Origin: an uncultured Nitrospirota bacterium
GTDB lineage: Bacteria; Nitrospirota; Nitrospiria; SBBL01; CAZSHZ01
Assembly: GCA_964606955.1 (NCBI GenBank)
Contig: CAZSHZ010000093.1
Location: 1 to 58,231 of the forward strand
Direction of reading: 5' to 3'
DNA length: 58,231 bases
Part shown: piece after piece, positions 3,790-52,601 of the stretch
How positions within the stretch are numbered: the stretch's first letter is position 1
Layout of the letters: the number at the start of each line of letters is the position of its first letter
Notes under the pieces: model-generated
What the model was told of the DNA's origin: nothing
The model's database searches: none
Seen by the model: the letters and a program-made list of their open reading frames with translations, nothing else
Position numbers and translations under genes: made by a program

Positions 3790-3818
3790 CCCCAAGCGCG
3801 CGGCGCTCGGGGACCCCC
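3790..3818. repeat. GC-rich palindromic element, copy 1 (CCCCAAGCGC-GCG-GCGCTCGGGG-ACCCCC)
   Basis: 10-bp arms with one mismatch, a 3-nt loop and an ACCCC tail. Preceded by the mini-hairpin GGGGCTTTTGCCCC at 3780-3793. Same architecture as the copies at 3854, 8315 and 27053. Confidence 0.7.
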
Positions 3819-5365: not shown

Positions 5366-5367
5366 AT

Positions 5368-6798: not shown

Positions 6799-8644
6799 CT
6801 TTCTTCTCCAGCGCTTCTTTGACGGCGCGGCTCATCAAGCTCTCGGCCAGCGGCATCGCGGCCGAATCAAGCCTCTCCAGCGCCTGCCGGATCGCCTGAT
6901 GGTCATTTCCGGCAACCGCCTGCTCGACCCCCTTCCTCGCCTCCCGAATCTCGGCGATCATCTCCGGGGCAGCAACCCCCTCCGCCTGCGCCAGCGCCTT
7001 TTCGGCGTGACGCAAGACCCCCTGGGCCTCGGTCCGCGCCTCAATCAGCATCCGCTCGGACATATCGGCGCGGGCGAAATGGATCGACTCCTCGATCATC
7101 CGCTCGACCTCGGCGTCCATCAATCCGTAAGACGGCTTCACCTCGATCCCCGCCTCCTTGTTCGTCCGCAGTTCCTTGGCGCGGACCTGGAGGATGCCGT
7201 TCGCGTCGATCAGAAACGTCACCTCGATCTTGGGGATCCCCGCCGGCATCGGATCGATCTTAAGATCGAAGCGCGCAAGCGAGCGGCAGTCGCGGACCAG
7301 TTCGCGCTCCCCCTGCACCACATGGATCGGCACCCTCGTCTGCCCGTCCATAAAGGTCGTGAACATCTCTTTGGCGGAAGCGGGGATCGTCGTATTGCGC
7401 GCGATCAGCTTGCTGACGACGCCCCCCATCGTCTCCATCCCGAGCGACAGCGGCGTCACGTCCAGCAGGAGAAGATCCTTAATGCCGCCGGCGAGGATGT
7501 CGGCTTGAACCGCCGCGCCGAGCGCGACGACCTCGTCGGGATTGAGCTCCGAGTGCGGCTTCTTGCCGAAGACCTCCTCGACCCGTCGGCGCACCAGAGG
7601 CATCCGGGTAGCCCCGCCCACAAGAATCACCTCATCGAGCTGTTCGGGCGCAAGCCGCGCATCCTCAAGCGCCTGGCGGCAGGGGGGGATCGTCCGCTCG
7701 ACGATGTCGGACGACCACTCCTCCAACTCGCGCCGGCTCAATACCCGGCGGTAGTCGACGCTGTCCCGGCAGACCGCCATCTCGGCGGTTGCTTCGAACG
7801 AGAGGCGGCACTTCGCCTCCTCGGCCGCAAGACGGACCGCCTGCATTAACTCCCGGTCGGCCTCGATCGGGCCTCCCGCCCGCTCGGCGACCTCCCCGGC
7901 CACGCGATCGACGATCCGCCGATCGATGTCGTCTCCTCCCAGGTGGGTATCGCCGTTCGTCGCGAGGACCTCAAAGACCCCCTCCTTGATCTTGAGGATT
8001 GAGATGTCGAACGTCCCGCCCCCCAGATCGTAGACCGCGATGATCCCTTCCTTCTTCTTCTGAAGCCCGTAGGCGAGGGAGGCCGCCGTCGGTTCATTGA
8101 CGATCCGCAAGACCTCCAGCCCCGCGATCTTGCCGGCGTCCTTCGTCGCCTGTCTCTGCGCGTCGTTGAAATAGGCCGGGACAGTGATGACCGCCTGGCC
8201 GACCAGCTCGCCGAAGAAGAGCTCCGCCCTCCGCTTCAACTCCTGGAGGATCAGCGCGGAGATCTCGGGCGGCGTGTAGATCCGCCCCCCCACTACGATC
8301 CGGACGATCTCCCGCCCCGAGCGCTCAGCGCTCGGGGACCCCGACTGCTGGGGCCCCGACTCCTCCGAGAGTCGGAACGGGAAATAGGCCAACTCGCTTT
8401 TGACATCGTCGCTCCCTCTCCCCATGAACCGCTTGATCGAGTAGATCGTCTGCTCCGCGTTCACAACGAGCTGCTTTTTGGCCTCGTATCCGATGCTCGC
8501 CGAGCCTTCCGGAGAGAAAGTCACCACGGAGGGGAGGAGGGGCCTCCCCTTCTCGTCCGGAATGACGCGCGGCTCCCCCCGATCCATGAAGGCCACCAGG
8601 CTGTTGGTCGTTCCGAGATCGATTCCGACCACGCGCGAGCTCAT
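6791..8644 (-). CDS. hscA: Fe-S cluster assembly chaperone HscA (Hsp70 family)
   Basis: [24 protein letters not shown] and the full Hsp70 architecture. Start set at MSSRVVGID (ATG at 8644), an ATGA overlap with the hscB stop. The 63-aa upstream extension in the track overlaps hscB. Confidence 0.95.
8315..8343. repeat. GC-rich palindromic element, copy 3 (CCCCGAGCGC-TCA-GCGCTCGGGG-ACCCCG), inside hscA coding sequence
   Basis: Perfect 10-bp arms, a 3-nt loop and an ACCCCG tail. Translated on the minus strand as ...[10 protein letters not shown]... Confidence 0.7.
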
Positions 8645-9290: not shown

Positions 9291-9332
9291 CCAAAAAAAG
9301 AAGAGCCCTGATTCGGGTCGCCTCAGGGCTCT
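9291..9332 (-). terminator. intrinsic-terminator-like hairpin between iscA and hscB
   Basis: Minus strand reads AGAGCCCTGA-ggcgacccgaa-TCAGGGCTCT followed by TCTTTTTTTGGG. The U-tract ends 7 nt before the hscB ATG. Confidence 0.55.
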
Positions 9333-9372
9333 TTCGCGTACAGCGTTTGCGCGGGAGGGGCGGCCGTTTATC

Positions 9373-9762: not shown

Positions 9763-9769
9763 GATCCTC

Positions 9770-10168: not shown

Positions 10169-10185
10169 TTATCCCCCCGTTCTGT

Positions 10186-11867: not shown

Positions 11868-11980
11868 CTTTAACTCCTGGTAGAAAGCCGACTATTTTTA
11901 TCGGACTTAGTTAAAAGGAAGATAACATAGGCCTTTAGGGGTGTCAAGTTATTTCCGATGAAAATTGTCGGAGACCCGGG

Positions 11981-12895
11981 TCAGGCTCTCGCTTGCGCCT
12001 TTCTCTTATCTGATTTCATCAATAAAAGCAATGGGCTGGCGATATACCATGAGGAATAAGTCCCGACGATAATCCCAAGGAGAAGGGCAAGCGAAAAATC
12101 GTGGATCGTCTCCCCGCCGAACAGATAGAGGGCGATGACCGCCAGCAGCGTGGTCAGCGAGGTGTTCAATGTCCGCGAAAGGACCTGGTTGATGCTGGCG
12201 TTGATCGCCTCCTCCAGCGACTCTCTCCTTTTAGTCCGCAGGTTTTCCCGGATCCGGTCAAAGACCACCACCGTGTCTGTCAGAGAATAGCCGGCGATCG
12301 TCAAAAGGGCCGTGACGAGAAGGAGCGTGACCTCCTTATTCATCAGAAAGAAGAGGCCGAGGACCGCCAGGACGTCGTGAACGGTAGCGGTCACCGCGGC
12401 AAGACCGAAACGAAAGTCGAAACGGACGGCGATGTAGAGGATGATTCCGATCAGGGAGAGGAAGATCGCCACTGTGGCGTCCTTCCGCAATTTCTGGCCG
12501 ATCATCGGCCCAATCTCGGTTGCGCTCTCGACGACGAAGCGGTTGTCGGGGACCGCCTCCATGAGCGCCACGACGATCCGGTCCGGAGTCCCCTCCCCCA
12601 CCTCCTGCTTGCGCAGGCGGACCAAAAACCTGTCCCCCCCGGTGAACTCCTGGATCTCCGCGTCGGAAAACCCCTTGGCGCCGAGCGCCTCCCGCACGCG
12701 CTCGATCAGAAGGGGCTTGTCGAGTTTCAATTGCAGGGCCATCCCTCCGGAGAAATCGATCCCGAGATTCGCCCGGCCGCGATAGATCTGCACCACGGCG
12801 GCCAGGCCGATCAGGACCAGAATCGTCGAGAAGACGAAGAAATATCTCCGCTTTCCGATAAAATCGAAACGGGTATCTTTGAAGATCTCGATCAA
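11981..12895 (-). CDS. secF: protein translocase subunit SecF
   Basis: Typical SecF pattern (GIDFSGG, six TM segments). 4-nt overlap with secD. Confidence 0.9.
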   Translation of the reverse strand: MIEIFKDTRFDFIGKRRYFFVFSTILVLIGLAAVVQIYRGRANLGIDFSGGMALQLKLDKPLLIERVREALGAKGFSDAEIQEFTGGDRFLVRLRKQEVGEGTPDRIVVALMEAVPDNRFVVESATEIGPMIGQKLRKDATVAIFLSLIGIILYIAVRFDFRFGLAAVTATVHDVLAVLGLFFLMNKEVTLLLVTALLTIAGYSLTDTVVVFDRIRENLRTKRRESLEEAINASINQVLSRTLNTSLTTLLAVIALYLFGGETIHDFSLALLLGIIVGTYSSWYIASPLLLLMKSDKRKAQARA

Positions 12896-14529
12896 ATCGA
12901 CAGCCTCTCGAGGCGCCTCAGATTCACCAGGTCGAAAACCACCTTGGTCCCGATCAGCGACGTAAAAAGATTGATGATCACCCCCAGCGAGAGGGTAACC
13001 GCGAACCCCTTGATCGGGCCGGTCCCAAAGAGGAACAGGACAAAGGCGGTGATCAGGGTGGTCACATGGGAGTCGAAGATCGTGACGAACGCCTTAGAGT
13101 ATCCGGCGTCCACCGCAAGCCGGGGAGGCTTCCCGGATCGCAACTCCTCGCGGATCCGCTCGAAGATGAGGACGTTGGAGTCGACCGACATCCCGATGGT
13201 GAGGATGATCCCGGCGATGCCGGGGAGGGTCAGCGTGGCGTTGAGGGCGGCCAGGGCCCCGATCAGAAGAATCATGTTGAACACCAGCGTGAAGTCCGCG
13301 ATCACTCCGGAGAGACGGTAATAGAAGATCATGAATCCTCCGACCAGCACCGTCCCCACGATCCCCGCTTTCATCCCGTGATCGATCGAGTCGCGCCCGA
13401 GCGAAGGACCGACGGTGACGTTCTGGATGATCTTCACCGGAGCCGGGAGGGCGCCCGCCCGCAGCACGATGGCAAGATCGCTCGCCTCCTCGGTCGTAAA
13501 CGAGCCGCTGATCTGGGCCCGCCCGCCGGAGATCCTGTCCTGAATCACCGGCGCCGAGTAGACCGTGTTGTCCAGAACGATCGCCAGCCGCCGCTTGACG
13601 TTCTCTCCGGTCACCCGCTCAAAGATTTTCGCCCCCGTGGCGTCGAACGTGATGGAGACATAGGACTGGTTGAAATTGTCGAAGGCGACCCGCGCATCCG
13701 AGAGGAGATCCCCGGTCAATGCGGCCTCCTTTTTCACAAGGAGCGGGGTCTTTGTCACGCGCCCGGTCTCCCGATTCACCCTCCGCTCGAAGAGGATCTG
13801 GCCCCCGGCGGGGACTTTCGGCGAGAACTCGTTGAAGACCTTCTCCTCCTCCTCCGGCGGGATCGAGACGGGGAGCTCCCGCCCGACAGGGGACTCCTCA
13901 TCGATCAGTTTGAATTCGAGCAGCGCCGTCTTGCCGATCAACTCGATCGCCCTCTGGGGGTTCTTCACCCCCGGGAGTTGGACCAGAATCTGCTTGGCCC
14001 CCTGCTTTTGAATCAACGGCTCGGCGACGCCGAACTGGTCCACCCGATTCCGGATCGTCTCCAGCGCCTGTGAGGTCGAGGAGTCGAGCACCCGGCTCAC
14101 CTCGCTCTCCTTGGGGGCGAATACGATCTCGCTTTCGGATTCCCGGACCAATCGAAAGGTCGGGAAATTGTCCGAGACGAGCTTCTCCGCGGCGGTCCGG
14201 GTGGAAGCATCGGCGGTCCGGACCCGGATCCCCTCCTCGATGCGATCGACCCCCACGATCCCCGAAACCTTCTTCTCTTCGAGAACCCTCTTCATGGCCG
14301 GTGCCGTCCGATCGATCATCCCTGCGATCGCCTTCTCCCCTTCGACCTCCAGGACCAGATGCATCCCTCCCTGCAGATCGAGCCCGAGGTTGACCCCGCG
14401 GCTCGGGAGGTATCTCTGCCACCATCCCGGCAGACTCGAATAGAGAGGGGTAGAGGGGAGAAAGAAGATAATCGAGAGAAAGACCGTGGCAAGGATCAGA
14501 AGCGCCCGCCGCTGGATCCTCTTTTTCAC
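12892..14529 (-). CDS. secD: protein translocase subunit SecD
   Basis: LGLDLQGG motif, a large periplasmic domain, and a C-terminal six-TM domain resembling SecF. Confidence 0.9.
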   Translation of the reverse strand: MKKRIQRRALLILATVFLSIIFFLPSTPLYSSLPGWWQRYLPSRGVNLGLDLQGGMHLVLEVEGEKAIAGMIDRTAPAMKRVLEEKKVSGIVGVDRIEEGIRVRTADASTRTAAEKLVSDNFPTFRLVRESESEIVFAPKESEVSRVLDSSTSQALETIRNRVDQFGVAEPLIQKQGAKQILVQLPGVKNPQRAIELIGKTALLEFKLIDEESPVGRELPVSIPPEEEEKVFNEFSPKVPAGGQILFERRVNRETGRVTKTPLLVKKEAALTGDLLSDARVAFDNFNQSYVSITFDATGAKIFERVTGENVKRRLAIVLDNTVYSAPVIQDRISGGRAQISGSFTTEEASDLAIVLRAGALPAPVKIIQNVTVGPSLGRDSIDHGMKAGIVGTVLVGGFMIFYYRLSGVIADFTLVFNMILLIGALAALNATLTLPGIAGIILTIGMSVDSNVLIFERIREELRSGKPPRLAVDAGYSKAFVTIFDSHVTTLITAFVLFLFGTGPIKGFAVTLSLGVIINLFTSLIGTKVVFDLVNLRRLERLSI

Positions 14530-14867
14530 TCCTCTTCCCCTTCGCCGACCAGTTCCTCAATGTGACTCCTCCGGAACTTCAGCCGGACACCGTCCACATC
14601 GACCGTAACGGTATTCTTACCGAGGTTGACAACCCGGCCGACGATTCCTCCGCGGGTGAGGACGCGGTCCCCTTTTTTAAGGTCTGCCAGCGTCTCCCGC
14701 CAGCGCCGGCTTTTTTTCTGCTGGGGCAGAATGAGAAGGATATAGAACACGATAAAGATGAGGATAAAAGGAAAGAAAGAGACGATGACCCCCGAAATGC
14801 CACCGGACTGCCCAGATGGGCCGGGAGCCTGCGCCCACGCCGTCGAAATCGCTTCCCACTTCAACAT
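14526..14867 (-). CDS. yajC: preprotein translocase subunit YajC
   Basis: Single TM followed by LKKGDRVLTRGGIVGRV. Canonical tgt-yajC-secD-secF order. Confidence 0.85.
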   Translation of the reverse strand: MLKWEAISTAWAQAPGPSGQSGGISGVIVSFFPFILIFIVFYILLILPQQKKSRRWRETLADLKKGDRVLTRGGIVGRVVNLGKNTVTVDVDGVRLKFRRSHIEELVGEGEEE

Positions 14868-16027
14868 CCGCTCATTCCCTCCTCCCCCCTCTGATCAGAA
14901 CCCTCTCGGGCCGCCCGGAACTCCCTTTGAAATTCCGCCTCGCGTCCGGCCCTAATCGCGGCGCGGATCCCGCGCATCAGCGAGAGATGATAATAGAGAT
15001 TGTGCAGCGTGAGCAACCGGACCGACAACACCTCGCCCGCGCTGTACAGATGACGGAGGTATGCGCGCGAGAACGTCCGGCAGGTCGGACAGCCGCAGAG
15101 CGGATCGATCGGCCGCTTATCCCCCGAGTATGCGGCGTTTTTAATCAGAAGCCTCCCGAAAGAGGTAAACAGAAAACCGTTGCGCGCATGCCGCGTGGGA
15201 ACCACGCAATCGAAAAGATCAATCCCGCCAAACGCCCCGCAGAGAAGCTCTTCCGGCATCCCGACCCCCATCAGATAGCGGGGACGTCCGACTGGGAGGT
15301 GCGGTAACACCGCCTCCAGCATCTCGCGCCTCTGGGCGGGAGGTTCCCCCACCGCAAGACCCCCGATTGCGTATCCATCAAAACCGATCGCCGTGATCTC
15401 CTGGGCCGAGCGCCGGCGCAGGTCGGCATAGAATCCCCCCTGCGCGATCCCATAGAGGAACCGGGCCCCACGCCTCGCCTCAAATCGATCTTTGCATCGT
15501 CGTCCCCAGGCCGCAGTAAGCGAGACCGCCCTCTCGGCGTCTCCCCGTTCGGAGGGATAAGGAAGACAGAGGTCGAGGGCCATCATGATGTCGGAGCCGA
15601 GATTCTCCTGCGCGTCGATCGCGCGCTCGGGCGAGAGGAAGAGGGACGATCCGTCCAGGTGCGAGCGAAAAGAGATCCCGTCGTCGGTTACGTGCACAAG
15701 GGGAGAGAGGGACATCGCCTGAAATCCGCCCGAGTCGGTCAGAATCGCTCCGGGCCAGGCCATGAATTCATGGAGCCCGCCGAGGGCCGCGATCTTCTCG
15801 TCGCCCGGTCGGAGCATCAGGTGATAGGCGTTGGCAAGCACAATCCGGCAGCCGAGCCCCTCCAGATCCGCCGGCGTCATCCCTTTAACGCTCCCCGCCG
15901 TCCCCACCGGGATGAACGCGGGGGTCTCGACGTCGCCGTGAGCCGTGCGAAGCCGTCCGACCCGCGCCCTCCCCGAGCCCCGAGCAAGAATTTCGAAATT
16001 CGCTTCGGCCACCACCTCGCCGTTCAT
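14861..16027 (-). CDS. tgt: tRNA-guanine transglycosylase
   Basis: TPAFIPVGT, LTDSGGFQ and the zinc motif CxCxxC...H (CGCPTCRTFSRAYLRHL). Start set at MNGEVV (16027) because the track extension would overlap argS. Confidence 0.9.
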   Translation of the reverse strand: MNGEVVAEANFEILARGSGRARVGRLRTAHGDVETPAFIPVGTAGSVKGMTPADLEGLGCRIVLANAYHLMLRPGDEKIAALGGLHEFMAWPGAILTDSGGFQAMSLSPLVHVTDDGISFRSHLDGSSLFLSPERAIDAQENLGSDIMMALDLCLPYPSERGDAERAVSLTAAWGRRCKDRFEARRGARFLYGIAQGGFYADLRRRSAQEITAIGFDGYAIGGLAVGEPPAQRREMLEAVLPHLPVGRPRYLMGVGMPEELLCGAFGGIDLFDCVVPTRHARNGFLFTSFGRLLIKNAAYSGDKRPIDPLCGCPTCRTFSRAYLRHLYSAGEVLSVRLLTLHNLYYHLSLMRGIRAAIRAGREAEFQREFRAAREGSDQRGEEGMSGC

Positions 16028-16037
16028 GCCGACCCCT

Positions 16038-17708
16038 TCACATTCGCTCGGGCGCCGAGACCCCAAGGATCGAAAGCGCGTTGGCCAAAACGATCCGGAC
16101 CGCCTCGACGAGGGCGAGACGGGCAGCGGACAGTTCAATATCGTCCGCGATGACCCGATGCTTGTAGTAGTAATTGTGGAAGATCCCTGCAACCTCCTGC
16201 AGGTAGAAGGTCAACCGGTGCGGCTCGCGCGCGCCGGCAGCCGACTCGATCAGTCCCGGGTAAAAGGAGAGATAGCGAAGGAGCGCCCGCTCCTCCGGGA
16301 GCGTCAGCCGATGGAAGGCTTCGCCGGGTTCGACGCGATGCTCCTCGGCGAAGCGGATGACGGAACAGACGCGGGCGTGCGCGTACTGAACGTAATAGAC
16401 CGGATTCTCCAAGGACTGCTTCTTAGCGATCTCGAGGTCGAAGTCGAGCGGGGTGTCGGACCGGCGGGTCAGGAACATGAAGCGGGCCGCATCGACGCCG
16501 ACCTCATCGACGACATCCGCCAGGGTTACGAATTCGCCCCCCCTCGTCGACATGGCAACCGGCTTTCCGTCCCGCAACAGATTCACCAGTTGAACCAGAA
16601 TGATGGAGAGACGCTCCGGCGGGATGAGAAACGCCGCAAGGGCGGCCTTCATCCTCGGGACGTAGCCGTGGTGATCGGCCCCCCAAACATCGATGACCTC
16701 ATCGAATCCCCGATCGAACTTGTTTTTGTGGTAAGCGATGTCGGAGGCGAAGTAGGTCGGGCGGCGGTCCTGCGCGCGGAGCGCCACCCGATCCTTGTCG
16801 TCGCCGAACCGGGTCGTCTCGATAAAGAGCGCCCCCTCCCGCTCGTAGGCCAAGCCTCTTTTTTCCAAATCCTCCAGGGAAGAGGCGACCTCCCCCTTCT
16901 CATAGAGAGACGATTCAGAAAACCAGTGATCGAAGCGAACTCTGAATTGCTCCAGATCCTTCCGGATCCCCTTCATGATCTCTCCGGCCGCAAAATTTCT
17001 TAAGGTTGCGATCCCCTCCGCCTCGTCCGCCAAAAGCCGGTCTCCCTCCCGCCTGTGCGCTTCGCGGGCGATCCGGACGATATACTCCCCCTGGTAATAC
17101 CCTTCAGGGAGAGGGGAGATCTCTTCCGACCCCGAACCGAGTTTCCCCGCGCAGAGATCTCTGTATCGCAGGAAGACCGATTTTCCAAGGGTCTCCATCT
17201 GGTTTCCGATGTCGTTGATGTAATACTCGCGTTCGACGTCGTAGCCCACGGCCTCCAGCAGGCAAGCCAAGGCGTCTCCGAGCGCGGCGCCCCGGCCATG
17301 CCCCACATGGAGGGGACCGGTCGGATTTGCCGAGACGAACTCCACCTGAATTCTTTTTCCCTTTCGAGGAGCCCGGCCGAAGCGATCCCCCTTCTCCCGC
17401 ACCTCCCTCAGCACATCGTGCCAGAAGCCGGAGAAAAGGAAGAAGTTTAAATACCCGCCGCCGGCCACCTCAACCCGTTCTATCGGAGGGGCGACCGCAA
17501 TCCTCTTCTTGAGGATTTCAGCGACCTGCCGGGGAGATTTCCTCTCGGCGCGTCCGAGGATCATCGCGACCGGAGAGGCAAAATCACCATGACCCTCCCG
17601 GCGCGGGATCTCCAGGGTGATCGGCGGAAAAGGCTCCGCCTTCAACTCCCCGCTCTCTTTGCATTGTCGGATCGCCTCCGTCAGGAGGCCGACGAGGGTC
17701 TCTCGCAT
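16038..17708 (-). CDS. argS: arginine--tRNA ligase
   Basis: SANPTGPLHVGHGR (HIGH motif), a class I fold and the C-terminal anticodon-binding DALR domain. Confidence 0.95.
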   Translation of the reverse strand: MRETLVGLLTEAIRQCKESGELKAEPFPPITLEIPRREGHGDFASPVAMILGRAERKSPRQVAEILKKRIAVAPPIERVEVAGGGYLNFFLFSGFWHDVLREVREKGDRFGRAPRKGKRIQVEFVSANPTGPLHVGHGRGAALGDALACLLEAVGYDVEREYYINDIGNQMETLGKSVFLRYRDLCAGKLGSGSEEISPLPEGYYQGEYIVRIAREAHRREGDRLLADEAEGIATLRNFAAGEIMKGIRKDLEQFRVRFDHWFSESSLYEKGEVASSLEDLEKRGLAYEREGALFIETTRFGDDKDRVALRAQDRRPTYFASDIAYHKNKFDRGFDEVIDVWGADHHGYVPRMKAALAAFLIPPERLSIILVQLVNLLRDGKPVAMSTRGGEFVTLADVVDEVGVDAARFMFLTRRSDTPLDFDLEIAKKQSLENPVYYVQYAHARVCSVIRFAEEHRVEPGEAFHRLTLPEERALLRYLSFYPGLIESAAGAREPHRLTFYLQEVAGIFHNYYYKHRVIADDIELSAARLALVEAVRIVLANALSILGVSAPERM

Positions 17709-21949: not shown

Positions 21950-22381
21950 TCAGCGCCGCCCGGTGGAGAGGCTCCGCACGAAGAGGAGGACCAGCCACCC
22001 CTCCTCGTCGTTGATCACGCTCCCGATCATCGGCATCATCGCAGTCCCGGGGCTGCCATGTTTCAATATCCAAAAGAGTTCGCCGTCGGTGCGGGAGCGA
22101 TGAAAGAGGGGATTTGTAAAGTTCCGGGGAGAGGGGTCGAGTCCGACCGCCGCTAATCCGTCCCCCTTCCCCTCCTTTCCATGGCAGACGAGGCAAGTCC
22201 CCTTTCCGACAAAAATCGCCTTTCCCCGGGCGATGTTCTTGGGCGTCGGAGCAAAAGGATTTTTCAGGGAGCGGGCTTGGGCAAGGTGCTCCGGCGGGAC
22301 CCGGGGAGCGATGACGTCACGCTCCGCGGCGTTCCCGCCGGATGGGAAAAACAAAAAGAGAAGAAAAAGTAGAAAACTCAA
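21950..22381 (-). CDS. monoheme c-type cytochrome (paralog 1 of 3)
   Basis: Signal peptide, a single CLVCHG haem site and a distal GSPGTAMMP Met region. Confidence 0.8.
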   Translation of the reverse strand: MSFLLFLLFLFFPSGGNAAERDVIAPRVPPEHLAQARSLKNPFAPTPKNIARGKAIFVGKGTCLVCHGKEGKGDGLAAVGLDPSPRNFTNPLFHRSRTDGELFWILKHGSPGTAMMPMIGSVINDEEGWLVLLFVRSLSTGRR

Positions 22382-22386
22382 AATCG

Positions 22387-22881
22387 CTACGGCTGCTTTG
22401 CCAGGCTCCGCTCAAAGAGGATGATCAGAGACATCTCCTCCTCGGTAATGATCGCGGGAACATACGAGATCATCCCGGTTCCAGGGCTCCCGTTCATAAT
22501 CACCCAGCGCATCTCCCCTTCGCTCTTGGTCGCCGCGAACCTTTGGTTATGGAAGTTGCGCGGGGAAGGATCGAGCCCCGCTCCGGCGGGACCGTCCCCC
22601 CTCCCCTCGTTGCCGTGGCAGGTGAAACAGGTCGCTTTCCCGGTGAAGAACTCCTTCCCCTTTGCGATGTTCTCCGGCGTCGGCGGAAAAGGGTTCTTCC
22701 AGGCCCTCGCCGCCCCGATCTGATCGGGTGGAACACGGAGCGCCAAAGGGTCCTTCTCCGCAGCATGCGCCGCGACGATCGCCAGCACCGCCGCGATCGA
22801 AGCCAAGACGGCGTACTTACTCACACTTTGCGCCGCCGAGGCTCTTTTCGAAGATGATGATCTGCCAGAGCTCGTTCTCAT
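22387..22881 (-). CDS. monoheme c-type cytochrome (paralog 2 of 3)
   Basis: CFTCHG haem site and GSPGTGM. An alternative GTG start at 22824 would cut the overlap with paralog 3 from 65 to 8 nt. Confidence 0.8.
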   Translation of the reverse strand: MRTSSGRSSSSKRASAAQSVSKYAVLASIAAVLAIVAAHAAEKDPLALRVPPDQIGAARAWKNPFPPTPENIAKGKEFFTGKATCFTCHGNEGRGDGPAGAGLDPSPRNFHNQRFAATKSEGEMRWVIMNGSPGTGMISYVPAIITEEEMSLIILFERSLAKQP

Positions 22882-23344
22882 CCACGGTTGGAGTCCCGGT
22901 TAGCCCGAGCGCCGACTCGGCGTCAATCAGATAGGGAACCATCCCCGTCCCATCCGGGTGGCTCGGAGCGTCTTTCTTGGAGAAATCCCCTTTGGTCCCG
23001 TTGGAGGTGACCCAGAACATCTCTCCGCAGCTCTTTTTCTTATGAAACTCCGGGTTGGTGAAATTCCGGGGACCGACCTGCGTTCCGGCCGCTCCCGCGC
23101 CGTCCCCTTTCCCTTCGTTCCCATGGCAGACAAAGCAGGTCGCCTTCCCGACAAAGAGCTCCTGCCCCGCCGCGACATTTTCCGGCGTGCTCGGAAGGGG
23201 GTTCTTCCTGGCCTTGGCGGCCGCTATCAAGTCGGGTGGGACTCTCGGTTTGAGCGGCTCATGTTCCGGCTTTACATCCTGTGCAACCACGTTGAGTGCA
23301 AAAAGGGCGGTGAATATCCCTGCGAGAAACCATGCTCTTTTCAT
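22817..23344 (-). CDS. monoheme c-type cytochrome (paralog 3 of 3, with an internal insertion)
   Basis: Start set at MKRAWFLAGIFTALFALNVVA (signal peptide). CFVCHG haem site. About 30 extra residues before the distal Met region compared with paralogs 1 and 2. Confidence 0.8.
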   Translation of the reverse strand: MKRAWFLAGIFTALFALNVVAQDVKPEHEPLKPRVPPDLIAAAKARKNPLPSTPENVAAGQELFVGKATCFVCHGNEGKGDGAGAAGTQVGPRNFTNPEFHKKKSCGEMFWVTSNGTKGDFSKKDAPSHPDGTGMVPYLIDAESALGLTGTPTVDENELWQIIIFEKSLGGAKCE

Positions 23345-23486: not shown

Positions 23487-24281
23487 TTGTGGGTTTTCGC
23501 GCTGCTCGTCTCCCTCTTGTTCGTCGGATGCTCGGCAACCCCCTCCGACATGGTCCGGGTCCCCGCGGGAGAATTCATCAGGGGCACGGATGAGGAGGAT
23601 GTGGAACATAAGGCCGACGAATTCGGGATCGTCAAGCCCTGGTTCGTCGATGAACACCCGATGCGCAAGATCCGCCTTCCGGAATTCAAAATCGACCGTT
23701 ATGAAACGACCAACGAACGGTACCTTTCGTTTGTCCGCGCGACAGGACATCGTCCTCCCCCCCACTGGAACTCTGGGGTGCCCGACGAAAAGATCTTAAA
23801 GAAGCCGGTTGTCCTGGTCACCTGGGATGATGCGCGGGCGTTCTGTCGCTGGGCCGGGAAGAGGCTCCCGACCGAGGCCGAGTGGGAGAAGGCCTCGCGG
23901 GGGGAGGACGGCCGCCCTTATCCCTGGGGCTCCCGTTTCGAGACGAACCGGGCGAACGTTGGGGGGTCCTACGGCGACCTCCTCCCGGTCGGCACCTTTG
24001 AATCGGGAAAGAGTCCCTACGGCGCCTACGATATGGTCGGAAACGTCTGGGAATGGGTGGAGGATTGGTACAAACCCTATCCGGGAAACGGCTATGAGAA
24101 CCCGAATTTCGGGGAGAAGGTCCGGGTGATCCGGGGGAACTCCTGGTCCACCATCGGCCACTTCCCTCCCGAGATCCATCGCGAACTGGTGGAGCACCAC
24201 TCCACGACGACATTCCGCCTCTTCGCACGGCCCGACTCGGTGATTGCCGACGTGGGGTTCCGATGCGCCAAAAGCCGCTGA
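23487..24281 (+). CDS. FGE-sulfatase (SUMF1/EgtB/PvdO) family lipoprotein, lacking the FGE catalytic cysteine pair
   Basis: LLFVGCSA lipobox-like signal. VTWDDARAFCRWAGKRLPTEAEWEKASRG, GNVWEWVEDWY, IRGNSW and GFRCA. No Cys after RGNSW. Confidence 0.8.
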   Translation: MWVFALLVSLLFVGCSATPSDMVRVPAGEFIRGTDEEDVEHKADEFGIVKPWFVDEHPMRKIRLPEFKIDRYETTNERYLSFVRATGHRPPPHWNSGVPDEKILKKPVVLVTWDDARAFCRWAGKRLPTEAEWEKASRGEDGRPYPWGSRFETNRANVGGSYGDLLPVGTFESGKSPYGAYDMVGNVWEWVEDWYKPYPGNGYENPNFGEKVRVIRGNSWSTIGHFPPEIHRELVEHHSTTTFRLFARPDSVIADVGFRCAKSR

Positions 24282-26527: not shown

Positions 26528-27979
26528 TTACTTGCGGGCAGGCGCCGCCGCCGGGATCCGCTCCGCCTTGACCTTGGCGATCCGCCGGCCGTCCATGTCG
26601 ACCACGGTAAACTTGAAATCGCCGTAATAGATGATATCCCCACCGCGCGGGACCGCCTGAAGTTGGGAGAGGACGAAACCGCCGAGCGTCTCATATTCGG
26701 GAGATTCAGGAAGGACCAGACCCCAGTCCGAGGCGAGGTCGCGGATCGCCAAAGAGGCGTCGACGGCCAACGAGCCATCTTTCAGGCGCTCCACGGGCCG
26801 CTCTTCGATATCGTATTCATCCCGGATCTCGCCGACGATCTCCTCGATCAGATCCTCCATCGTGACGAGCCCCTCTACGCTTCCATACTCATTGACGACG
26901 ATCGCCATCTGCATCCGCCGCCGCTGCAGCTCTTTTAAAAGATGGCTCACCTTCATCGTCTCGGGGACGAAAAAGACCGGATGCAACAGATCGACGAGTT
27001 TGACCTCGGCGGCGCCGCCCTCCGGATTCCTGCGAGCGTCGGGCTTTGATAGCCCCAAAGACGCGGTCTTTGGGGACCCCGGGTCCTGCGCGAGCGCCTG
27101 AGGTCTGGGGGTTGGCTCGGAAGGGGGCAGGCCCCCTTCCGCATCATTCTTGGTCACCTTCTCGGCGAGGGTGGCCAGGAGATCCTTAAACACCAGGATC
27201 CCGCAGATATCGTTGATATTGGTCTTGTAGACCGGATAGCGGGAGAACTTGTTCTCGGCGACGAACTTCAAGACCTCCTGAACGGGGGTGTCGCTCTGGA
27301 GGGCGTGAATGTTGAGACGGTGAACCATCACCTCCCGGACGGAGATGTCGTGGAACTCGAAAACGGAATGGATCAGCTCCTGCTCGGTTGGATCGAACAC
27401 CCCCTTCTCCCTCCCCTCTTTTAAAAGGAGTCTGATCTCCTCTTCAGTCACAAAGGGGCCTGCCGGACCGGGACCCAACGGCTTTAAGATCCAGCGGCTC
27501 GTGGCGGTCAGAATCCGGGTCAACCAGGAGGAACTGCGGGCAAAAAACTCCATCGGAATGGCCACCCAAAGGGCAAGACGCTCGGGGTAGCGGATCGCCA
27601 ACGACTTCGGGACGAGCTCGCCAAAGGTCACGTTCAGATATGAGATCAGGACGACGGCGATGATCATTGCGATCGCCTCGCTGAAGCCGGCAAGAACCGG
27701 ATTGTCGAGACCCGCCAGATACGGCTTGAGGCTCTCAACCGCAGCCACCCCTCCGACCGCAGCGGCAGCCGATCCGACGATCGTGATCCCTACCTGCACG
27801 GTGGCAAGGAGCCGCTCAGGGTCCCCCTGGAGGAGGGCAGCCGCCCGGGCCGCCCGGTTCCCTTTCTCGGCCAACTCCTTGATGTTGCTCTTACGGGCCG
27901 CAATCAGCGAAATCTCGGCGCAGGCGAAAAACCCGTTTGCTAGGATCAGAAGGAGGATGAGGAGAATCTGCCAGGGCAT
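26528..27979 (-). CDS. CNNM/HlyC-CorC family transporter (DUF21 + CBS pair + CorC_HlyC) with a low-complexity insert in the CBS region
   Basis: N-terminal DUF21 TM domain (ANGFFACAEISLIAARK), CBS pair and the C-terminal CorC_HlyC domain (LGGFVLSQLQAVPRGGD). Start set at MPWQILL (27979). Confidence 0.85.
   Translation of the reverse strand: MPWQILLILLLILANGFFACAEISLIAARKSNIKELAEKGNRAARAAALLQGDPERLLATVQVGITIVGSAAAAVGGVAAVESLKPYLAGLDNPVLAGFSEAIAMIIAVVLISYLNVTFGELVPKSLAIRYPERLALWVAIPMEFFARSSSWLTRILTATSRWILKPLGPGPAGPFVTEEEIRLLLKEGREKGVFDPTEQELIHSVFEFHDISVREVMVHRLNIHALQSDTPVQEVLKFVAENKFSRYPVYKTNINDICGILVFKDLLATLAEKVTKNDAEGGLPPSEPTPRPQALAQDPGSPKTASLGLSKPDARRNPEGGAAEVKLVDLLHPVFFVPETMKVSHLLKELQRRRMQMAIVVNEYGSVEGLVTMEDLIEEIVGEIRDEYDIEERPVERLKDGSLAVDASLAIRDLASDWGLVLPESPEYETLGGFVLSQLQAVPRGGDIIYYGDFKFTVVDMDGRRIAKVKAERIPAAAPARK
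27053..27081. repeat. GC-rich palindromic element, copy 4 (CCCCAAAGAC-GCG-GTCTTTGGGG-ACCCCG), inside the CorC-family coding sequence
   Basis: Perfect 10-bp arms, a 3-nt loop and an ACCCCG tail. Preceded by GGGCTTTGATAGCCC (27041-27055) as in copy 1. Translated as ...PGSPKTASLG... Confidence 0.7.
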
Positions 27980-31937: not shown

Positions 31938-32594
31938 TTGAACATGAAAAGGGTGATCTGGCTCTCGATAATCCTGATTTTCAGTTTCGGTTGTGTTGCG
32001 TCCCCCGTTACGGCGCAGGAGCACCCGGATCGGAATAAGTTTCACGCCGACGTGGCGCATACGTTACTTGATATGAATACGACGCTCGACATGATCGAGG
32101 CCTTTCGCGCCCAAGAGAAGATGCCTCCCGACCGCGACGCCGTCCATGAGAAGGCTGCACACGGTTTCAAGCACGGGCTGGAGCTCTTCGGGGTCGAGGT
32201 CAAAATGAAGGAGCACGCTGATCGAAACAAGTTCCATGCAGATGTGGCCCATTCGCTTCTGGATATGAATGTTGCCCTGGACCGGATCGAGGGCTTCCGC
32301 GCGCAGGGGACGATGCCACCGGATCGGGATGAGATGCATGAGAAGACGGCCCACGGTTTCAAGCAGGCGCTGGAGCTCTTTGGAGTTCAGTTCACCATGC
32401 CGAAGCATCCCGATCGAAACAGATTCCATGCTGATGTGGCGCACGCGCTCCTGGAGATGAATACCACACTGGACATCATTGAGAGCTTCCGGGCCGAGCA
32501 GAAGATGCCCCCGAACCGGGATGAGATGCATGAGAAGGCGGCCCACGGTTTCAAGCAGGCGCTGGAGCTCTTTGACGTGAAGATCAAAATGTAA
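31938..32594 (+). CDS. secreted His-rich protein built from three tandem 64-aa repeats (unknown family)
   Basis: Signal peptide (VIWLSIILIFSFGCVASPVTA), then three units of HPDRNKFHADVAHxLLDMNxxLDxIExFRAQxxMPPDRDxxHEKxAHGFKxxLELFGV. GGAGG lies before the ATG. Confidence 0.65.
   Translation: MNMKRVIWLSIILIFSFGCVASPVTAQEHPDRNKFHADVAHTLLDMNTTLDMIEAFRAQEKMPPDRDAVHEKAAHGFKHGLELFGVEVKMKEHADRNKFHADVAHSLLDMNVALDRIEGFRAQGTMPPDRDEMHEKTAHGFKQALELFGVQFTMPKHPDRNRFHADVAHALLEMNTTLDIIESFRAEQKMPPNRDEMHEKAAHGFKQALELFDVKIKM
32019..32591 (+). repeat. three tandem ~192-nt coding repeats (32019-32210, 32211-32402, 32403-32591)
   Basis: Repeat period of exactly 64 codons (His29, His93, His157 are equivalent). High identity is visible at both protein and DNA level. 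Confidence 0.85.
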
Positions 32595-32610
32595 GAAAGG
32601 AGGCTTAGGC

Positions 32611-42201: not shown

Positions 42202-45200
42202 ATGCAGATCGCAGCAGCTTATAATTTTCGGAAGGGTTTGCTTATCTTCGCGCTGGTCCTGGCGGTCCCGGCGTGGGCCTTAGGCGCGGATAACGCAGAC
42301 CAAAACATCAACGACATGCACGCCATGCACGGCGGAACCGGCACCGAGGTCTCGCGAGAGAACGCGGGCCCCGCCCTCATGGGGGCCCTGACCAACCGCC
42401 TCGACTCCGAAATCGCGCGCGCAGGCGGCCAGATGGGCGGTTTTACCTCAAGCGGACAGGCGCACGCGATGTCGCAGGGGGTCCCACTTCGGATCTCGAC
42501 TACCGAGGAGTCTGTGACGTCGGGCGGCCGGTGCCCGGACGGGGTCCCCATCAAGAACTTCGATATCTCTGCGATCAACGTCCAGATTACCCTCAACCGC
42601 TTCATGCAGTTTTTCCCCGGCTACCTCTACGCCCTGACCGAGGATCTCCCGAAGGTCCGCGAGGAGGAGAAGAAGAACGCCGAGGCCCGGAAGAGCGCCG
42701 ATGAGTTCCGCGACGCCGGGGTCTCCACCGGACTTCAGGGCGATTTGATCCAGCCGCTGGTCATCCGCGCCGGCGCGGGCGACTGCGTCCGGATCATCCT
42801 CCGCAATCAGACGACGAACGAGGAGCCGGTCAGCATCCATATCCACGGTTCAAGCCTGATCATCCGCGCCACCGGCCAAGCGGCGACGATGATAAACAAG
42901 GACTCTCTCGTCATGCCTGGAAAGAGCCAGGAGTTTGAGTGGTACATCCCCGGAGACCAGCCGGACAACGCGCACCACTTCCACAGCCATGCGGTCCGCG
43001 AGCAGTGGAACCTCGGGATGTTCGGAGCGTTGGTGGTTGAGCCGCGCGGCTCGCGCTATCTCTCCCCCTGGAGCGGAAAAGAGATGAAGAGCGGGTGGAT
43101 GGCGATGATCGAGGACCCGAACGGTCCGGACTTCCGCGAGTTCGCGATCTTCTATATGGAGATCGGGGATGAGGTCGTCCGGATTCTCGACCGCAAGGGC
43201 GAACTCCTTCCGCAGCGGGACCCCATGACCGACACGTATCGGCCCGCCGCGCGCGGCCTCAATTTAAGGAGCGAGAACCATGGGACCCGCCTTACGCTCC
43301 AGAAGGAGAAGCACGGGATCCATGACGAGTCGATGGCCTACGGATCGTACACCTTCGGAGATCCGGCCACGACTGTTCCCCGCTCCTATCTCGGCGATCC
43401 GGTCAAGTTCCGGATGATGGGGGGGGCCGAGATCATCCATTCCCATCATCTTCACGGCGGAAGCGACCGCTGGCCGCGCTCCCCCGAGGCGGTCACGAAG
43501 GCGGAGTTTGACTTTGCCGCCACATCCAGCGGGACCGGACCGGTGAAGTTCCCGCCGATTCGGACCTCCTCCGAGCGGCTGGATGTCCAGGCGATCGGCG
43601 CCGCGGAATCATTTAACGAGGTGATCGAGTGCGGTTCCGGCGGCTGCGCCTACGGCGCCGGAGACTACACCTTCCACTGCCATATTCCTCAGCACTACGT
43701 GACCGGAATGTGGGGCTTCTGGCGGGTCTACACCACCCTTCAGGCGGCGGGCTCGCAGGACGACATCATGCCGGCGCTGGCGGAGCTCCCCGATCGGAAG
43801 GGTAAGATGAAGGAGGCGGTCGATTCCTCCAAACTGGTCGGCACCACAGTGGACTGGTTTGCCGGAAAGAAGTTCAAGATTACGGCGGACAAGACCGACT
43901 GGAGTGCAAATCCCCAGATGGTTTCGATCAAGGATTGGGTGGAGATGCAGCTTCCGGCCCAGGGACTTCCGGGCGGCCAGGAGGACGAGCATAAGCAGAT
44001 CGTCTCTTACGACGCTAGCGTCTATAACTGGAAGTGGGAGAGGAATGTCGCGTTGAACGAGCCCGAGACCAAGCAGGTCTGGGCCAATTATAAATCGCCT
44101 GCCCCGGGGAAACGGCTCCCGATCCGATGGGATTCGGCCACTGGCAAGCCCTCGATTCCGTGGGAGCGACCACACCTGGGTAAGCGCCCCCCATTCTCGC
44201 CCGACCACAATCCGGCCCCGTTCTTTGAGCCGATCCGGCTCAATAAGGATGGGAAACGGACGACCGAGCCGGCCCAGCCCGGGGAAAACGGCCCTTGGAG
44301 CCTCTGCCCCTCGAACGCGCCGCGCAAATACTACACGATCAACGCGATCGGACTTCCGATCACGTTGAAAACGGCGACCGCCAAAACGCCGGCGATCGTC
44401 GATCCGGACGCCCAGATCTTCGTCCTGGAGGAGGAAGAGGCGGCGGTCCGGGTGACACCCGCCAAGCAGGTGCCGCTGGCGATCCGCGCGAACGTCTACG
44501 ACTGCGTGGACGTCGTCTTCAAGAGTAAACTTCCGGACGACAAGCGGGTGGCCAATTCCAGCAAGGTCAACATGCACCCGCACTTCTTCCAGTTCGACAT
44601 CACCGCCACCGACGGGGTGATCATCGGATTCAACTATGAGCAGTCGGTCCGGCCGTTCAACCTGTTGAAGTCGGAAGACCGGGAAGAGACACACCACGGA
44701 ATGCCGATGCCGCAGAATACAACGCTGACAAAGGCGGCCAAGGCAGGGGATCTCTCGATTACGGTCGCCTCGACAGTCCGGCATATCGACGTGAACGAGG
44801 ACAAGTTCGACACCCCGATGTTCCACCCGGGAACTGTGATCGGAATCGGCCTGGACGGAGTCGGAGAATTCGAGGCGAGAAGGATCAAGGAGATCAATGG
44901 GAACAAGGTGATCTTCACCGAACCGCTGATCAACGACCACGCGGCCGGACGGATCGTCAGCGTTGAGTACGTCCGCTACCGCTGGTATCCGGACGTCGAT
45001 CTCGGGATCGTCTTCTGGCATGACCATGTCTTCGGGCTCGACTCCTGGGGACACGGGCTGTTCGGCTCGACGATCGTCGAGCCGCCTCGCTCCACCTATC
45101 ACGATCCAACGACCGGCAAGGAGGTCCGAAGCGGTCTGGTCGTCGATATCCACACCACCGATCCGGTCTCGGCAAAAGTGACAGGGAGTTTCCGGGAGAT

Positions 45201-52562: not shown

Positions 52563-52601
52563 AGCGGCGGAAGGGGACCTGTCCCCTTCCGCAGGAGCGC
52601 G

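Follow-up and report, generated by a model that had tools for sequence, protein, structure and literature searches.

A probable REP/BIME-like palindromic repeat read in frame within a CorC/CNNM transporter gene of an uncultured Nitrospirota bacterium

RESULTS

The CorC/CNNM gene contains a lineage-specific insert

The stretch of DNA analyzed here, hereafter the window, is 58 kb long (58,231 nucleotides). On its minus strand, it encodes a CorC/CNNM-family transporter with an insert in the linker between two CBS domains, and several short hairpins lie inside this insert. The features at this locus are:

26528..27979, minus strand: CorC/CNNM-family transporter gene, 483 aa, intact, with CNNM, a CBS pair, and CorC_HlyC domains
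27011..27157, minus strand: lineage-specific CorC insert V275-A323, 147 nt or 49 codons, in the CBS1-CBS2 linker
27030..27148, minus strand: composite (mosaic) core of the insert, 119 nt
27041..27055, plus strand: mini-hairpin GGGCTTTGATAGCCC (GGGCT-ttgat-AGCCC), overlapping the main stem by 3 nt (CCC)
27053..27080, plus strand: copy 4 of the family-1 unit, CCCCAAAGAC-GCG-GTCTTTGGGG-ACCCC, with a 10-bp stem, 3-nt loop, and ACCCC tail
27074..27086: small palindrome GGACCC-c-GGGTCC, overlapping the ACCCC tail of copy 4
27118..27141: family-2 hairpin CGGAAGGGGG-CAGG-CCCCCTTCCG, 10-11-bp stem

The CorC open reading frame was examined for a split or frameshift and is unbroken, with the two halves of the gene in frame on either side of an insert of exactly 49 codons that holds no stop. 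An earlier reading, made from the sequence alone, had described an insert of about 45 aa between the CBS motifs; its position stands, and its length is corrected to 49 aa. Aligning CorC homologues, a check which that sequence-only reading had proposed, demonstrated that the insert is lineage-specific, as it was missing in 13 of 13 aligned sequences (58-69% identity) and at the syntenic orthologous locus (L110). The 119 other CorC homologues listed are 372-465 aa long against 483 aa here, and none is long enough to hold the insert. The longest aligned homologues, P0101 and P0103, owe their extra length to N-terminal extensions. An AlphaFold2 model of CorC from 14 sequences was unusable (mean pLDDT 54), so we located the insert by alignment to PDB chains, and on chain 7m1t the insertion site is a 4-residue linker (residues 258-263).

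Among the peptides predicted from the CorC insert is TASLGLSKPDAR. G+C content at codon positions 1/2/3 is 0.69/0.63/0.73 in the insert and 0.64/0.38/0.78 in the remainder of the gene, and the composition of the insert resembles that of non-coding DNA. The 49-aa peptide had no match among 1.84 billion representative proteins. Because of this and of the G+C content at codon position 2 (0.63 versus 0.38), we judge that the insert is not a protein module. The short direct repeat GCCGAG is present on both sides of the insert.

A 28-nt hairpin unit is present in four copies

Copy 4, the perfect hairpin within the CorC insert, belongs to a family of 28-nt units (family 1) that occurs four times in the window, always on the plus strand, twice between genes and twice within them. 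The remaining family members and related features are:

3790..3817, plus strand: family-1 copy 1, intergenic, 22 nt past the aquaporin stop codon
3854..3881, plus strand: family-1 copy 2, intergenic, 86 nt past the aquaporin stop codon
8315..8342, plus strand: family-1 copy 3, inside hscA, codons G102-S-P...G110
8321..8362, minus strand: lineage-specific HscA insert E95-R108, 14 codons, at a beta-hairpin turn of the nucleotide-binding domain
52567..52592: family-2 hairpin GCGGAAGGGGA-CCTG-TCCCCTTCCGC, intergenic, between the E1beta and E2 genes

Copies 1 and 2 share one spacer between the convergent aquaporin and tusA genes. The claim that CorC and hscA carry the same element is borne out by a covariance model: all four copies scored 44-47 bits, against 15 bits for the next site distinct from them and 16-23 bits for the same palindromes read on the opposite strand. 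A relaxed family-1 pattern likewise matched four times in the window against 0.07 expected. Every copy has a 10-bp stem, a 3-nt loop, and a CCCC/GGGG foot. Stem cells were 97.5% paired, with both sides changed in 4 of 10 pairs, whereas slid controls were 25-58% paired. The sole stem mismatch, in copy 1, reads A.C on the plus strand and G.U/G.T on the transcribed minus strand, and G.U likewise falls on the transcribed strand in look-alike hairpins from Ruminococcus. The flank that does not vary is ACCCC 3' of the plus-strand stem (GGGGT 5' on the minus strand), while the other flank reads TTTG, TCCA, CCCG, or ATAG. Across the window, perfect hairpin records of at least 9 bp numbered 15, compared with 3.9 +/- 2.5 in Markov simulations.

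The DNA fold of copy 4 has an energy of -9.9 kcal/mol (z -3.9). On the minus strand, this copy is a GGGGT tag followed by the hairpin, and it lies within CorC codons P300-G309. Its sequence is unique in the window at up to 3 mismatches, with 0 expected from shuffles. As the sequence-only reading had noticed, the mini-hairpin before copy 4 (27041-27055) mirrors one ahead of copy 1, GGGGC-tttt-GCCCC (3780-3793). Gene-associated copies are all oriented alike relative to transcription. GC skew is flat near 27 kb, and for this reason we made no use of an argument from replication strand.

An intrinsic terminator was considered for these G+C-rich hairpins and rejected, as they have no T-run: no terminator-like site was found in 3600-4100, where the tail is ACCCC without a T-tract. 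A genuine terminator with TTTTTTATT lies at 47006-47044, for contrast. Rfam 15 gave no covariance-model match at gathering score in the window, nor any match at E<=1 at the hairpins of four look-alike loci.

The HscA insert was missing in 15 of 15 homologues, and its site on PDB chain 8w1m is a hairpin turn (residues ~96/97). It is identical in an independent second assembly (L112) 16 SNPs apart. Direct repeats of (A)GTCGGGG flank or occur at the insert, with TCGGGG present three times.

The CorC insertion is a 119-nt mosaic with copies elsewhere

The second assembly, GCA_947085945.1, is of the same species and 99.87% identical. Its aquaporin/TusA spacer (L112 12366-12484) is 89% identical to the 119-nt mosaic, which consists of the mini-hairpin, the 28-nt hairpin, the GGACCC-c-GGGTCC palindrome, and the family-2 hairpin. 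These data change two points of the sequence-only reading. First, the 28-nt hairpin is not the whole inserted unit; what entered is larger, a mosaic of ~119 nt. Second, the other hairpin in the insert, which had been placed at 27119-27140, is present and extends over 27118-27141, and it is no separate feature: since the whole mosaic recurs elsewhere at 89% identity, this hairpin and copy 4 are parts of one insertion. The family-2 hairpin at 52567-52592 is related to it and differs by one compensated stem pair, G-C to A-T.

A further copy was seen at the protein level, where the translated mosaic, in the same frame, matches residues 3-43 of P0241 at 78% identity. The mosaic makes up the first 43 residues of this annotated Asd-type protein, and the Pfam domain begins at residue 46; the open reading frame may be over-called in this case. 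In all, six family-1-bearing sites are known (four in the window, one in L112, and one implied by P0241), which is a small census.

We found no terminal inverted repeats joining the ends of 27011-27157 or of 27030-27148, and a short direct repeat, TCCTGCG..AGCG, lies inside the mosaic. Between the two mosaic copies, substitutions affected 3 of 58 stem positions and 10 of 61 positions outside the stems, a difference that is not significant (Fisher p = 0.08). The two near-identical assemblies differ in the spacer at 3767-3950, and of the 16 SNPs that separate them, 4 fall no more than 110 nt away from this spacer. As SNPs cluster beside the spacer, this difference looks like allelic replacement by recombination rather than a transposition caught in the act.

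Both intragenic copies are read in the same frame

The family-1 unit has the same orientation and codon phase in both genes, giving G301-S-P-K-T-A-S-L-G309 in CorC and G102-S-P-S-A-E-R-S-G110 in HscA, and the G-S-P match reported from the sequence alone is thereby upheld. Because so many frames are open (three of six across the mosaic and five of six across the hscA copy), agreement between two genes has p ~0.2; the shared frame is real, yet statistically weak. The frame in use is the sole open one that gives a near-neutral peptide rich in Pro/Ser/Gly/Thr. It had been argued that the shared frame reflects frame-compatible insertion or survival. Survival filtering is a plausible cause, and nothing shows frame-aware insertion.

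DISCUSSION

A probable selfish repeat tolerated in surface loops

We consider the CorC feature to be one copy of a selfish palindromic repeat of REP/BIME-like character, tolerated in frame where the host protein forms a surface loop, and assign this reading a probability of about 0.72. Such tolerance is best read as a parallel to the Rickettsia palindromic elements (RPEs). On the minus strand, the unit would consist of a 5' GGGGT tag and a hairpin built from a CCCC/GGGG foot, 6 interior base pairs of variable sequence, and a 3-nt loop, and units would join other small hairpins into mosaics of ~120 nt. Their recurrence indicates that units and mosaics have spread by copying to other genomic sites. 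Spacers at gene ends appear to hold the majority, with two of the four copies in the window being intragenic. At least two intragenic copies add a length divisible by three that contains no stop codon, and each is placed in a surface linker or turn. The host genes would stay functional, with the repeat translated into a disordered loop rich in Pro, Ser, and Gly. This peptide would have no function of its own, and the shared frame would reflect which insertions survive.

The last step that we propose is tentative. Spread may depend on an HUH/Y1-type (RAYT-like) enzyme acting in trans that recognizes the folded single-stranded hairpin and its tag, with perfect stems kept by selection for recognition or by hairpin-templated repair. 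Pfam searches of the open reading frames in the 58-kb window found no transposase of any kind, and a crude regular-expression screen found no HUH/Y1-motif open reading frame within 1.5 kb of similar hairpins at 108 other loci. Separately, the direct repeats (GCCGAG, (A)GTCGGGG, and TCCTGCG..AGCG) would be more in keeping with microhomology or with a mechanism that generates duplications than with an IS200/REP-type mechanism, though each could be chance. A region of this kind should contain ~1 7-mer repeat by chance alone, and the insert boundaries are ambiguous. Programmed translational bypass, suggested by the matching TCG GGG and GCC GAG codons flanking the inserts, was set aside; it is unneeded because the inserts are open and in frame, with no stop after the take-off codon.

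Look-alike multi-copy hairpin families occur in unrelated genomes, among the matches listed from a medium-strict pattern scan that drew on 185,579 species genomes; these matches do not include the source genome. With a stricter pattern, a metagenome scan returned 18 loci, none from the source organism. Literature searches with the literal strings GGGGACCCC and GGGGTCCCC returned irrelevant matches only. A bolder reading, which we think unlikely, is that the 28-nt unit belongs to a third, undescribed REP-like superfamily defined by a GGGG-W-CCCC junction (GGGGT tag plus CCCC foot) in place of GTAG or CGTC. This superfamily would be multi-copy in unrelated phyla, some enzyme that has yet to be associated with it would recognize its folded single-stranded DNA, and its mosaics could colonize coding sequence in frame. 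Besides the Nitrospirota described here, its hosts would be Ruminococcus and other Bacillota, a Campylobacteraceae MAG, and sediment bacteria of both low and high GC, and some of the shared features may be imposed by the search pattern itself.

Alternatives to a mobile selfish element

We regard it as distinctly unlikely that no dedicated mobility is involved, with slippage or template switching at G-runs creating the inserts, ectopic recombination or gene conversion acting between G+C-rich palindromes, and homologous recombination spreading inserts from strain to strain. In its support, short direct repeats or microhomologies flank both inserts (TCGGGG three times at hscA; GCCGAG at CorC), the altered spacer at 3767-3950 with its neighboring SNPs is a recombination-tract signature, and neither the window nor the look-alike screen yielded a transposase. 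Local slippage, however, does not account for a 119-nt mosaic at no fewer than three unrelated loci with 78-89% identity, which implies copying over a distance. The fixed 28-nt design, with its one-sided conserved tag and variable paired interior, indicates recognition by a protein, and the look-alike families (among the matches listed) also count against this explanation.

Alternatively, the hairpins could be RNA or DNA structures selected for a local job and persisting for function rather than as selfish DNA. Proposed jobs are the slowing of ribosomes between CBS domains or Hsp70 strands, protection of mRNA 3' ends, and protein binding, and even taken jointly they make an improbable account. 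In its favor, compensatory changes keep stems perfect, folds in the mRNA sense exceed those of shuffles in stability (z -2.3 for CorC and -4.3 for hscA), gene-associated copies share one orientation relative to transcription, and the lone mismatch becomes G.U on the transcribed strand, as in Ruminococcus. The intergenic copies also sit at convergent-gene 3' ends, where REPs stabilize mRNA (PMC3733652). However, the inserts are missing in every homologue, so the proteins fold without them, and one mosaic occurs in contexts as unrelated as a spacer, a 5' region, and a linker. The lack of a T-tract and of any Rfam match speaks against terminators or a catalogued RNA. Quasipalindrome correction is a hairpin-templated repair that maintains perfect palindromes, and it can do so without selection.

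There is very little chance that assembly or binning produced the insert artefactually, by chimeric joining through a repeat, or that CorC is a pseudogene: repeats do break and confuse assemblers, the CorC insert is found in one assembly only (P0001 is a singleton cluster), and a 1-kb Logan contig with part of the CorC region (L113) ends short of it, but a chimera would link unrelated loci whereas here halves of the same gene flank 49 stop-free codons in one frame, an independent assembly carries an identical hscA insert, and the mosaic itself is present in other contigs.

Implications and comparison with known systems

If translated selfish repeats are the correct reading, low-complexity inserts in conserved proteins and N-terminal extensions like the one in P0241 may stem from the translation of repeats and not be real domains, which matters for annotation. 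Since the repeat-bearing spacers differ between near-identical strains, they are usable as strain markers and are likely break points of contigs. If the tag defines a wider family, it would provide a handle for finding the enzyme that moves the element.

Several known elements resemble this one in part. Like the small non-autonomous MITEs (Correia/NEMIS, ERIC, and Chunjie), it has stable RNA folds and sometimes lies in frame in open reading frames; it differs in having no terminal inverted repeats at the mosaic ends, in being G+C-rich rather than A+T-rich, and in conserving structure over sequence. Elements of the IS200/IS605 type (for example, IS608) have subterminal hairpins that are recognized as folded single-stranded DNA. 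The likeness here is a CCCC/GGGG-foot hairpin, a one-sided guide or tag, and local copies on one strand. In contrast, the unit occurs singly or within mosaics and has no tnpA or tnpB close to it, and there are possible flanking direct repeats, which IS200/IS605 elements are not known to make.

In REPs, the stem measures 7-20 bp, its loop 2-5 nt, and the tag lies 0-2 nt to the 5' side of the stem (PMC6006769), and all four family-1 copies fall within these stem and loop ranges. The repeat resembles REPs and BIMEs (REPINs) as a 20-40-nt unit with a single-stranded tag at the foot of a G+C-rich hairpin, here with a 10-bp stem and a 3-nt loop. It is also multi-copy (four copies in 58 kb), has two copies at convergent-gene 3' ends, forms mosaics as in BIMEs, and varies in locus content by strain. 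It departs from them in its tag, which is GGGGT (ACCCC), with no GTAG or GTGG 0-2 nt 5' of the foot. Furthermore, the copies at 3790 and 3854 are direct and not inverted doublets, half of the window copies are intragenic, and no RAYT gene is among the window genes. The CGTC tag of REP/RPE-4 and RPE-6 (Di Nocera 2013) does not mark the family-1 palindromes either; copies 2 and 3 have no CGTC beside them, and the CGTC near copies 1 and 4 differs in distance and side.

A close parallel in outcome is with the RPEs of Rickettsia (Ogata et al. 2000/2002, summarized in PMC10969869 and PMC3733652); within genes, REPs and RPEs add 20-82 residues to the encoded protein (PMC3733652; PMC10969869). RPEs are palindromic, ~100-150 nt long, and found both between genes and in frame within conserved genes, as is our mosaic at 119-147 nt. 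In both cases, tens of residues are added at tolerant sites, frame and orientation recur, and host genes are intact. The RPE host is a reduced intracellular alphaproteobacterium, whereas the host here is a free-living, G+C-rich Nitrospirota. Several short perfect hairpins stand in place of a single long palindrome, CGTC does not consistently mark an end, and two to three intragenic cases stand against dozens in Rickettsia; the two are likened by description, not sequence. Events of this kind have been described before, in Rickettsia and in a few further bacteria, and what we describe is a variant without the usual tag. It would extend selfish DNA inside coding genes to a free-living, G+C-rich Nitrospirota, through a repeat that carries neither a GTAG nor a CGTC tag.

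A 28-nt hairpin family in the window

The gene for a CNNM/CorC/HlyC-family transporter (CorC) had been proposed from the sequence to contain a tailed hairpin, and this was borne out: CCCCAAAGAC-GCG-GTCTTTGGGG-ACCCC lies at 27053-27080. The general design, CCCC-RA...C-NNN-G...TY-GGGG-ACCCC (28 nt), had four matches in the window against 0.07 expected, all four on the plus strand.

Copies of the 28-nt unit in the window
3790-3817, plus strand: copy 1, in the spacer of the convergent aquaporin (MIP) and tusA genes
3854-3881, plus strand: copy 2, in the same aquaporin/tusA spacer, together with copy 1
8315-8342, plus strand: copy 3, within hscA, an Hsp70-type gene
27053-27080, plus strand: copy 4, within CorC

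The six inner stem pairs vary among the four copies yet stay complementary. Across the stems, 97.5% of cells were paired and 4 of 10 pairs were altered on both sides; sliding the partner by 1-3 columns as a control reduced pairing to 25-58%. With a covariance model trained on them, the four copies scored 44-47 bits, the next distinct window site 15 bits, and the opposite strand of the four palindromes 16-23 bits; in the closest relatives, ~37 kb of syntenic DNA gave zero matches to the model. The sole non-Watson-Crick pair among the copies, an A.C in copy 1, becomes G.U/G.T on the minus strand. Read on that strand, a 5' GGGGT tag runs straight into a hairpin whose stem (10 bp) has a G+C foot and whose loop is 3 nt. 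The copies form a repeat family that is both structured and tagged. More broadly, perfect hairpins of at least 9 bp were about fourfold in excess across the whole window (15 records versus 3.9 +/- 2.5 in first-order Markov simulations).

CorC and HscA carry lineage-specific in-frame inserts

We then examined the two genes that contain a copy.

Features of the CorC region
26528-27979, minus strand: CorC ORF, 483 aa, with CNNM transmembrane domain, two CBS motifs, and CorC_HlyC domain
27041-27055: mini-hairpin GGGCT-ttgat-AGCCC, a small stem before the 28-nt unit
27118-27141: second hairpin, 10-bp stem CGGAAGGGGG-CAGG-CCCCCTTCCG

The 483-aa product exactly matches one database protein, known from a single contig. 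The 119 other homologues listed span 372-465 aa, and the longest of those aligned, P0101 (465 aa) and P0103 (461 aa), have their extra length at the N-terminus. Alignment of homologues upheld the suggestion of a lineage-specific insert, with a 49-residue block, V275-A323 (27011-27157), missing in 13 of 13 (58-69% identity). One of these 13, without the insert like the others, comes from a syntenic locus (order Rrf2 - CorC - aminotransferase IV - chorismate-binding enzyme). In an alignment to the solved structure of a CNNM/CorC protein, 7m1t, residues 4-270 and 327-384 of the query matched chain residues 10-258 and 263-320; since the alignment breaks at chain 258/263, the extra residues replace the four-residue CBS1-CBS2 linker. 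As the ORF is unbroken and its halves share one frame, CorC is neither split nor frameshifted. The insert is unlike coding sequence in composition, with GC at codon positions 1/2/3 of 0.69/0.63/0.73 versus 0.64/0.38/0.78 in the rest of the gene, and a search of 1.84 billion representative proteins with its 49-aa translation gave zero matches (E <= 0.001). Folded as single-stranded DNA, the hairpins at 27053-27080 and 27118-27141 reached -9.9 kcal/mol (z -3.9 versus shuffles) and -12.1 kcal/mol (z -4.2), respectively.

HscA (617 aa) has 14 additional residues, E95-R108 (8321-8362), missing in 15 of 15 aligned homologues and falling, by comparison with DnaK structures, in a beta-hairpin turn of the nucleotide-binding domain. 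An identical HscA protein is encoded on contig L112 of a second assembly of the same species (GCA_947085945.1), which independently confirms the insert. Both inserts are in frame, at a linker in CorC and a turn in HscA.

The CorC insert is a copy of a hairpin mosaic

The principal new result concerns the unit present in CorC, which proved to be a mosaic made up of small hairpins. Between L112 and window 3951-16319 there are 16 substitutions (99.87% identity). The aquaporin-tusA spacer is 184 nt in the window, with copies 1 and 2 and a GTAG...CTAC palindrome; in L112 it is a different sequence of 119 nt, which matches the opposite strand of window 27030-27148 at 89% identity. The 119 nt common to the L112 spacer and the core of the CorC insert include the second hairpin, a GGACCC-c-GGGTCC palindrome, the mini-hairpin, and the 28-nt unit, which does not differ between them. 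Of the differences, 13 in all, 3 fall at the 58 stem positions and 10 at the 61 outside, which is not significant (p = 0.08); one change in the second hairpin, G-C to A-T, is compensated. The 119-nt mosaic has been copied between unrelated loci.

When all six frames of the mosaic were translated, concatenated, and used as query, a single additional protein was returned: P0241, a semialdehyde dehydrogenase of the Asd type whose residues 3-43 are 78% identical to the CorC-used frame and whose Pfam NAD-binding domain starts at residue 46. In this NCBI protein (16134-nt contig), the annotated 44-residue N-terminal extension is translated mosaic. Most likely the true start lies just downstream of the mosaic and the annotated start codon is over-called. 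A relative of the second hairpin stands alone at 52567-52592: this perfect 11-bp hairpin, GCGGAAGGGGA-CCTG-TCCCCTTCCGC, fills most of the 39-nt gap between the 2-oxoacid dehydrogenase genes E1beta (51561-52562) and E2 (52602-53780) and is immediately followed by AGGAG. The mosaic in the L112 spacer, P0241, and the relative at 52567 together identify the CorC insert as one copy of a spacer-occurring hairpin mosaic. The second hairpin seen by the sequence-only reading arrived together with the mosaic.

Reading frame of the inserts

The claim that both genes read the element in the same phase was correct (HscA G-S-P-S-A-E-R-S-G, CorC G-S-P-K-T-A-S-L-G). Because 3 of 6 frames are open in the mosaic and 5 of 6 in the hscA copy, the two genes would agree in orientation and frame by chance with a probability of ~0.2; including P0241, which may lack translation, lowers this to ~0.07. 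Translations showed that the CorC-used frame is the only open mosaic frame giving a near-neutral, Pro/Ser/Gly/Thr/Ala-rich peptide, the other two being strongly basic, with Trp and Cys. Frame-compatible insertion or survival had been proposed; filtering by survival is the economical explanation, and nothing suggests frame-aware insertion. The inserts are probably translated and tolerated, and their peptides are probably without function.

Repeat turnover at the aquaporin-tusA spacer

Repeat content turns over at this one spacer between near-identical strains. The spacers (window 3767-3950, L112 12370-12488) are wholly different despite 99.87% identity, and the aquaporin end codons and both stop codons are also unlike. 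Since 4 of the 16 substitutions fall within 110 nt on the tusA side (3953, 4049, 4052, 4058), the difference between the assemblies is best read, from the sequences, as allelic replacement by recombination. A 12-bp palindrome at 3920-3953, GTAGATCCCCCC-gcaagccggt-GGGGGGATCTAC, is bounded by GTAG...CTAC and overlaps the tusA stop codon. Such bounds are the "double-foot" form of REPs, and this genome may hold a canonical GTAG-type REP family (one palindrome copy in the window) besides the 28-nt family.

Look-alike hairpins and other repeats

Pattern scans of public genomes and metagenomes found, among the matches listed, hairpins with the same build, present in multiple copies in unrelated organisms: Ruminococcus MAGs (with A.C at pair 5, as in copy 1), a Campylobacteraceae MAG, other Bacillota, and sediment contigs, both G+C-rich and low-GC (one of the latter with three tandem copies). 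Their resemblance stems in large part from the search pattern, in which foot, tail, and two inner pairs were preset; among non-seed copies, the tail is present in L094 and a one-base variant in L033. We treat this distribution as a lead only. Several Ruminococcus MAGs carry multi-copy hairpins CCCCAAAATC-NNN-GATTT(C/T)GGGG-ACCCC, often beside a conserved stretch and a tRNA gene; example look-alike loci (L002-L090) include L005 4621-4648, L017 7343-7370, and L073 5712-5945. One Campylobacteraceae MAG has CCCCAAAAGCGTTGCTTTTGGGGACCCC on four of its contigs, and Lawsonibacter faecis has two look-alike copies 206 nt apart. Low-GC (39-43%) sediment contigs L093, L094, L098, and L101 have the same build in A+T-rich spacers, and at L094 9704-9807 three copies follow one another in tandem every 38 nt, separated by identical 10-nt spacers. 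In metagenome Ga0315281, G+C-rich contigs L092, L097, L099, L105, and L106 share a conserved ~130-nt repeat whose central hairpin sits within a longer C-run/G-run palindrome; that of L099 matches copy 1 at 27 of 28 positions.

The window has other repeats: three tandem 192-nt repeats at 32015-32596, adjoining a HEAT-repeat ORF; three ~143-nt repeats at 22158-23242, 434-508 nt apart, where L110, the syntenic CorC locus lacking the insert, has two small cytochrome c genes; and a 128-nt stretch (2171-2298 and 23803-23930, 80% identity) common to two FGE-sulfatase paralogues.

Possible mechanism and relation to known systems

REPs and IS200/IS605 ends are recognised as a folded single strand plus tag by HUH/Y1-type enzymes. 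By analogy, the family may have spread through such an enzyme acting in trans, a tentative reading to which we give roughly one chance in three. Against it, the tag is non-canonical, no gene for such an enzyme was found (the window encodes no transposase by gene lists and Pfam), and short direct repeats bracket the inserts, although each is alone compatible with chance.

Direct repeats at the inserts
27005-27010 and 27161-27166: GCCGAG, around the whole CorC insert
27028-27038 and 27084-27096: TCCTGCG(CG)AGCG, around mini-hairpin plus 28-nt unit, also in the L112 copy
8315-8359: (A)GTCGGGG two to three times in hscA, with TCGGGG three times in the insert

These repeats may be target duplications or microhomologies; none is significant alone.

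A classical MITE was rejected since no terminal inverted repeats join the mosaic ends, and an intrinsic terminator since the element lacks a T-run; for contrast, an ordinary terminator, AGGGGCGCGAGG-ttgagg-CCTCGCGCCCCT then TTTTTTATT, lies at 47006-47044, 20 nt past a 1594-aa ORF (42202-46986). By eye, the product of that ORF has a candidate copper-site motif, H-C-H-x3-H-x4-M.

Rfam gave zero family matches, and GTAG, GTGG, and consistent CGTC tags were not found at the 28-nt unit. Because it lacks these tags and terminal inverted repeats, we do not file the element under GTAG/CGTC REPs or MITEs. Its interest would grow if a genome-wide census and an associated enzyme revealed a distinct and widespread superfamily with the GGGG-W-CCCC tag. 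The observation is real and the sequence-only reading was largely right, for a phenomenon already established elsewhere. REPs have a tag 0-2 nt 5' of a 7-20-bp stem with a 2-5-nt loop (PMC6006769); the 28-nt unit shares this architecture but has GGGGT in place of GTAG/GTGG, and the mosaic resembles a BIME. By behaviour, the closest systems are the Rickettsia palindromic elements (PMC10969869) and the intragenic REPs of Di Nocera et al., in which conserved proteins gain 20-82 residues from single units, dimers, and clusters (PMC3733652).
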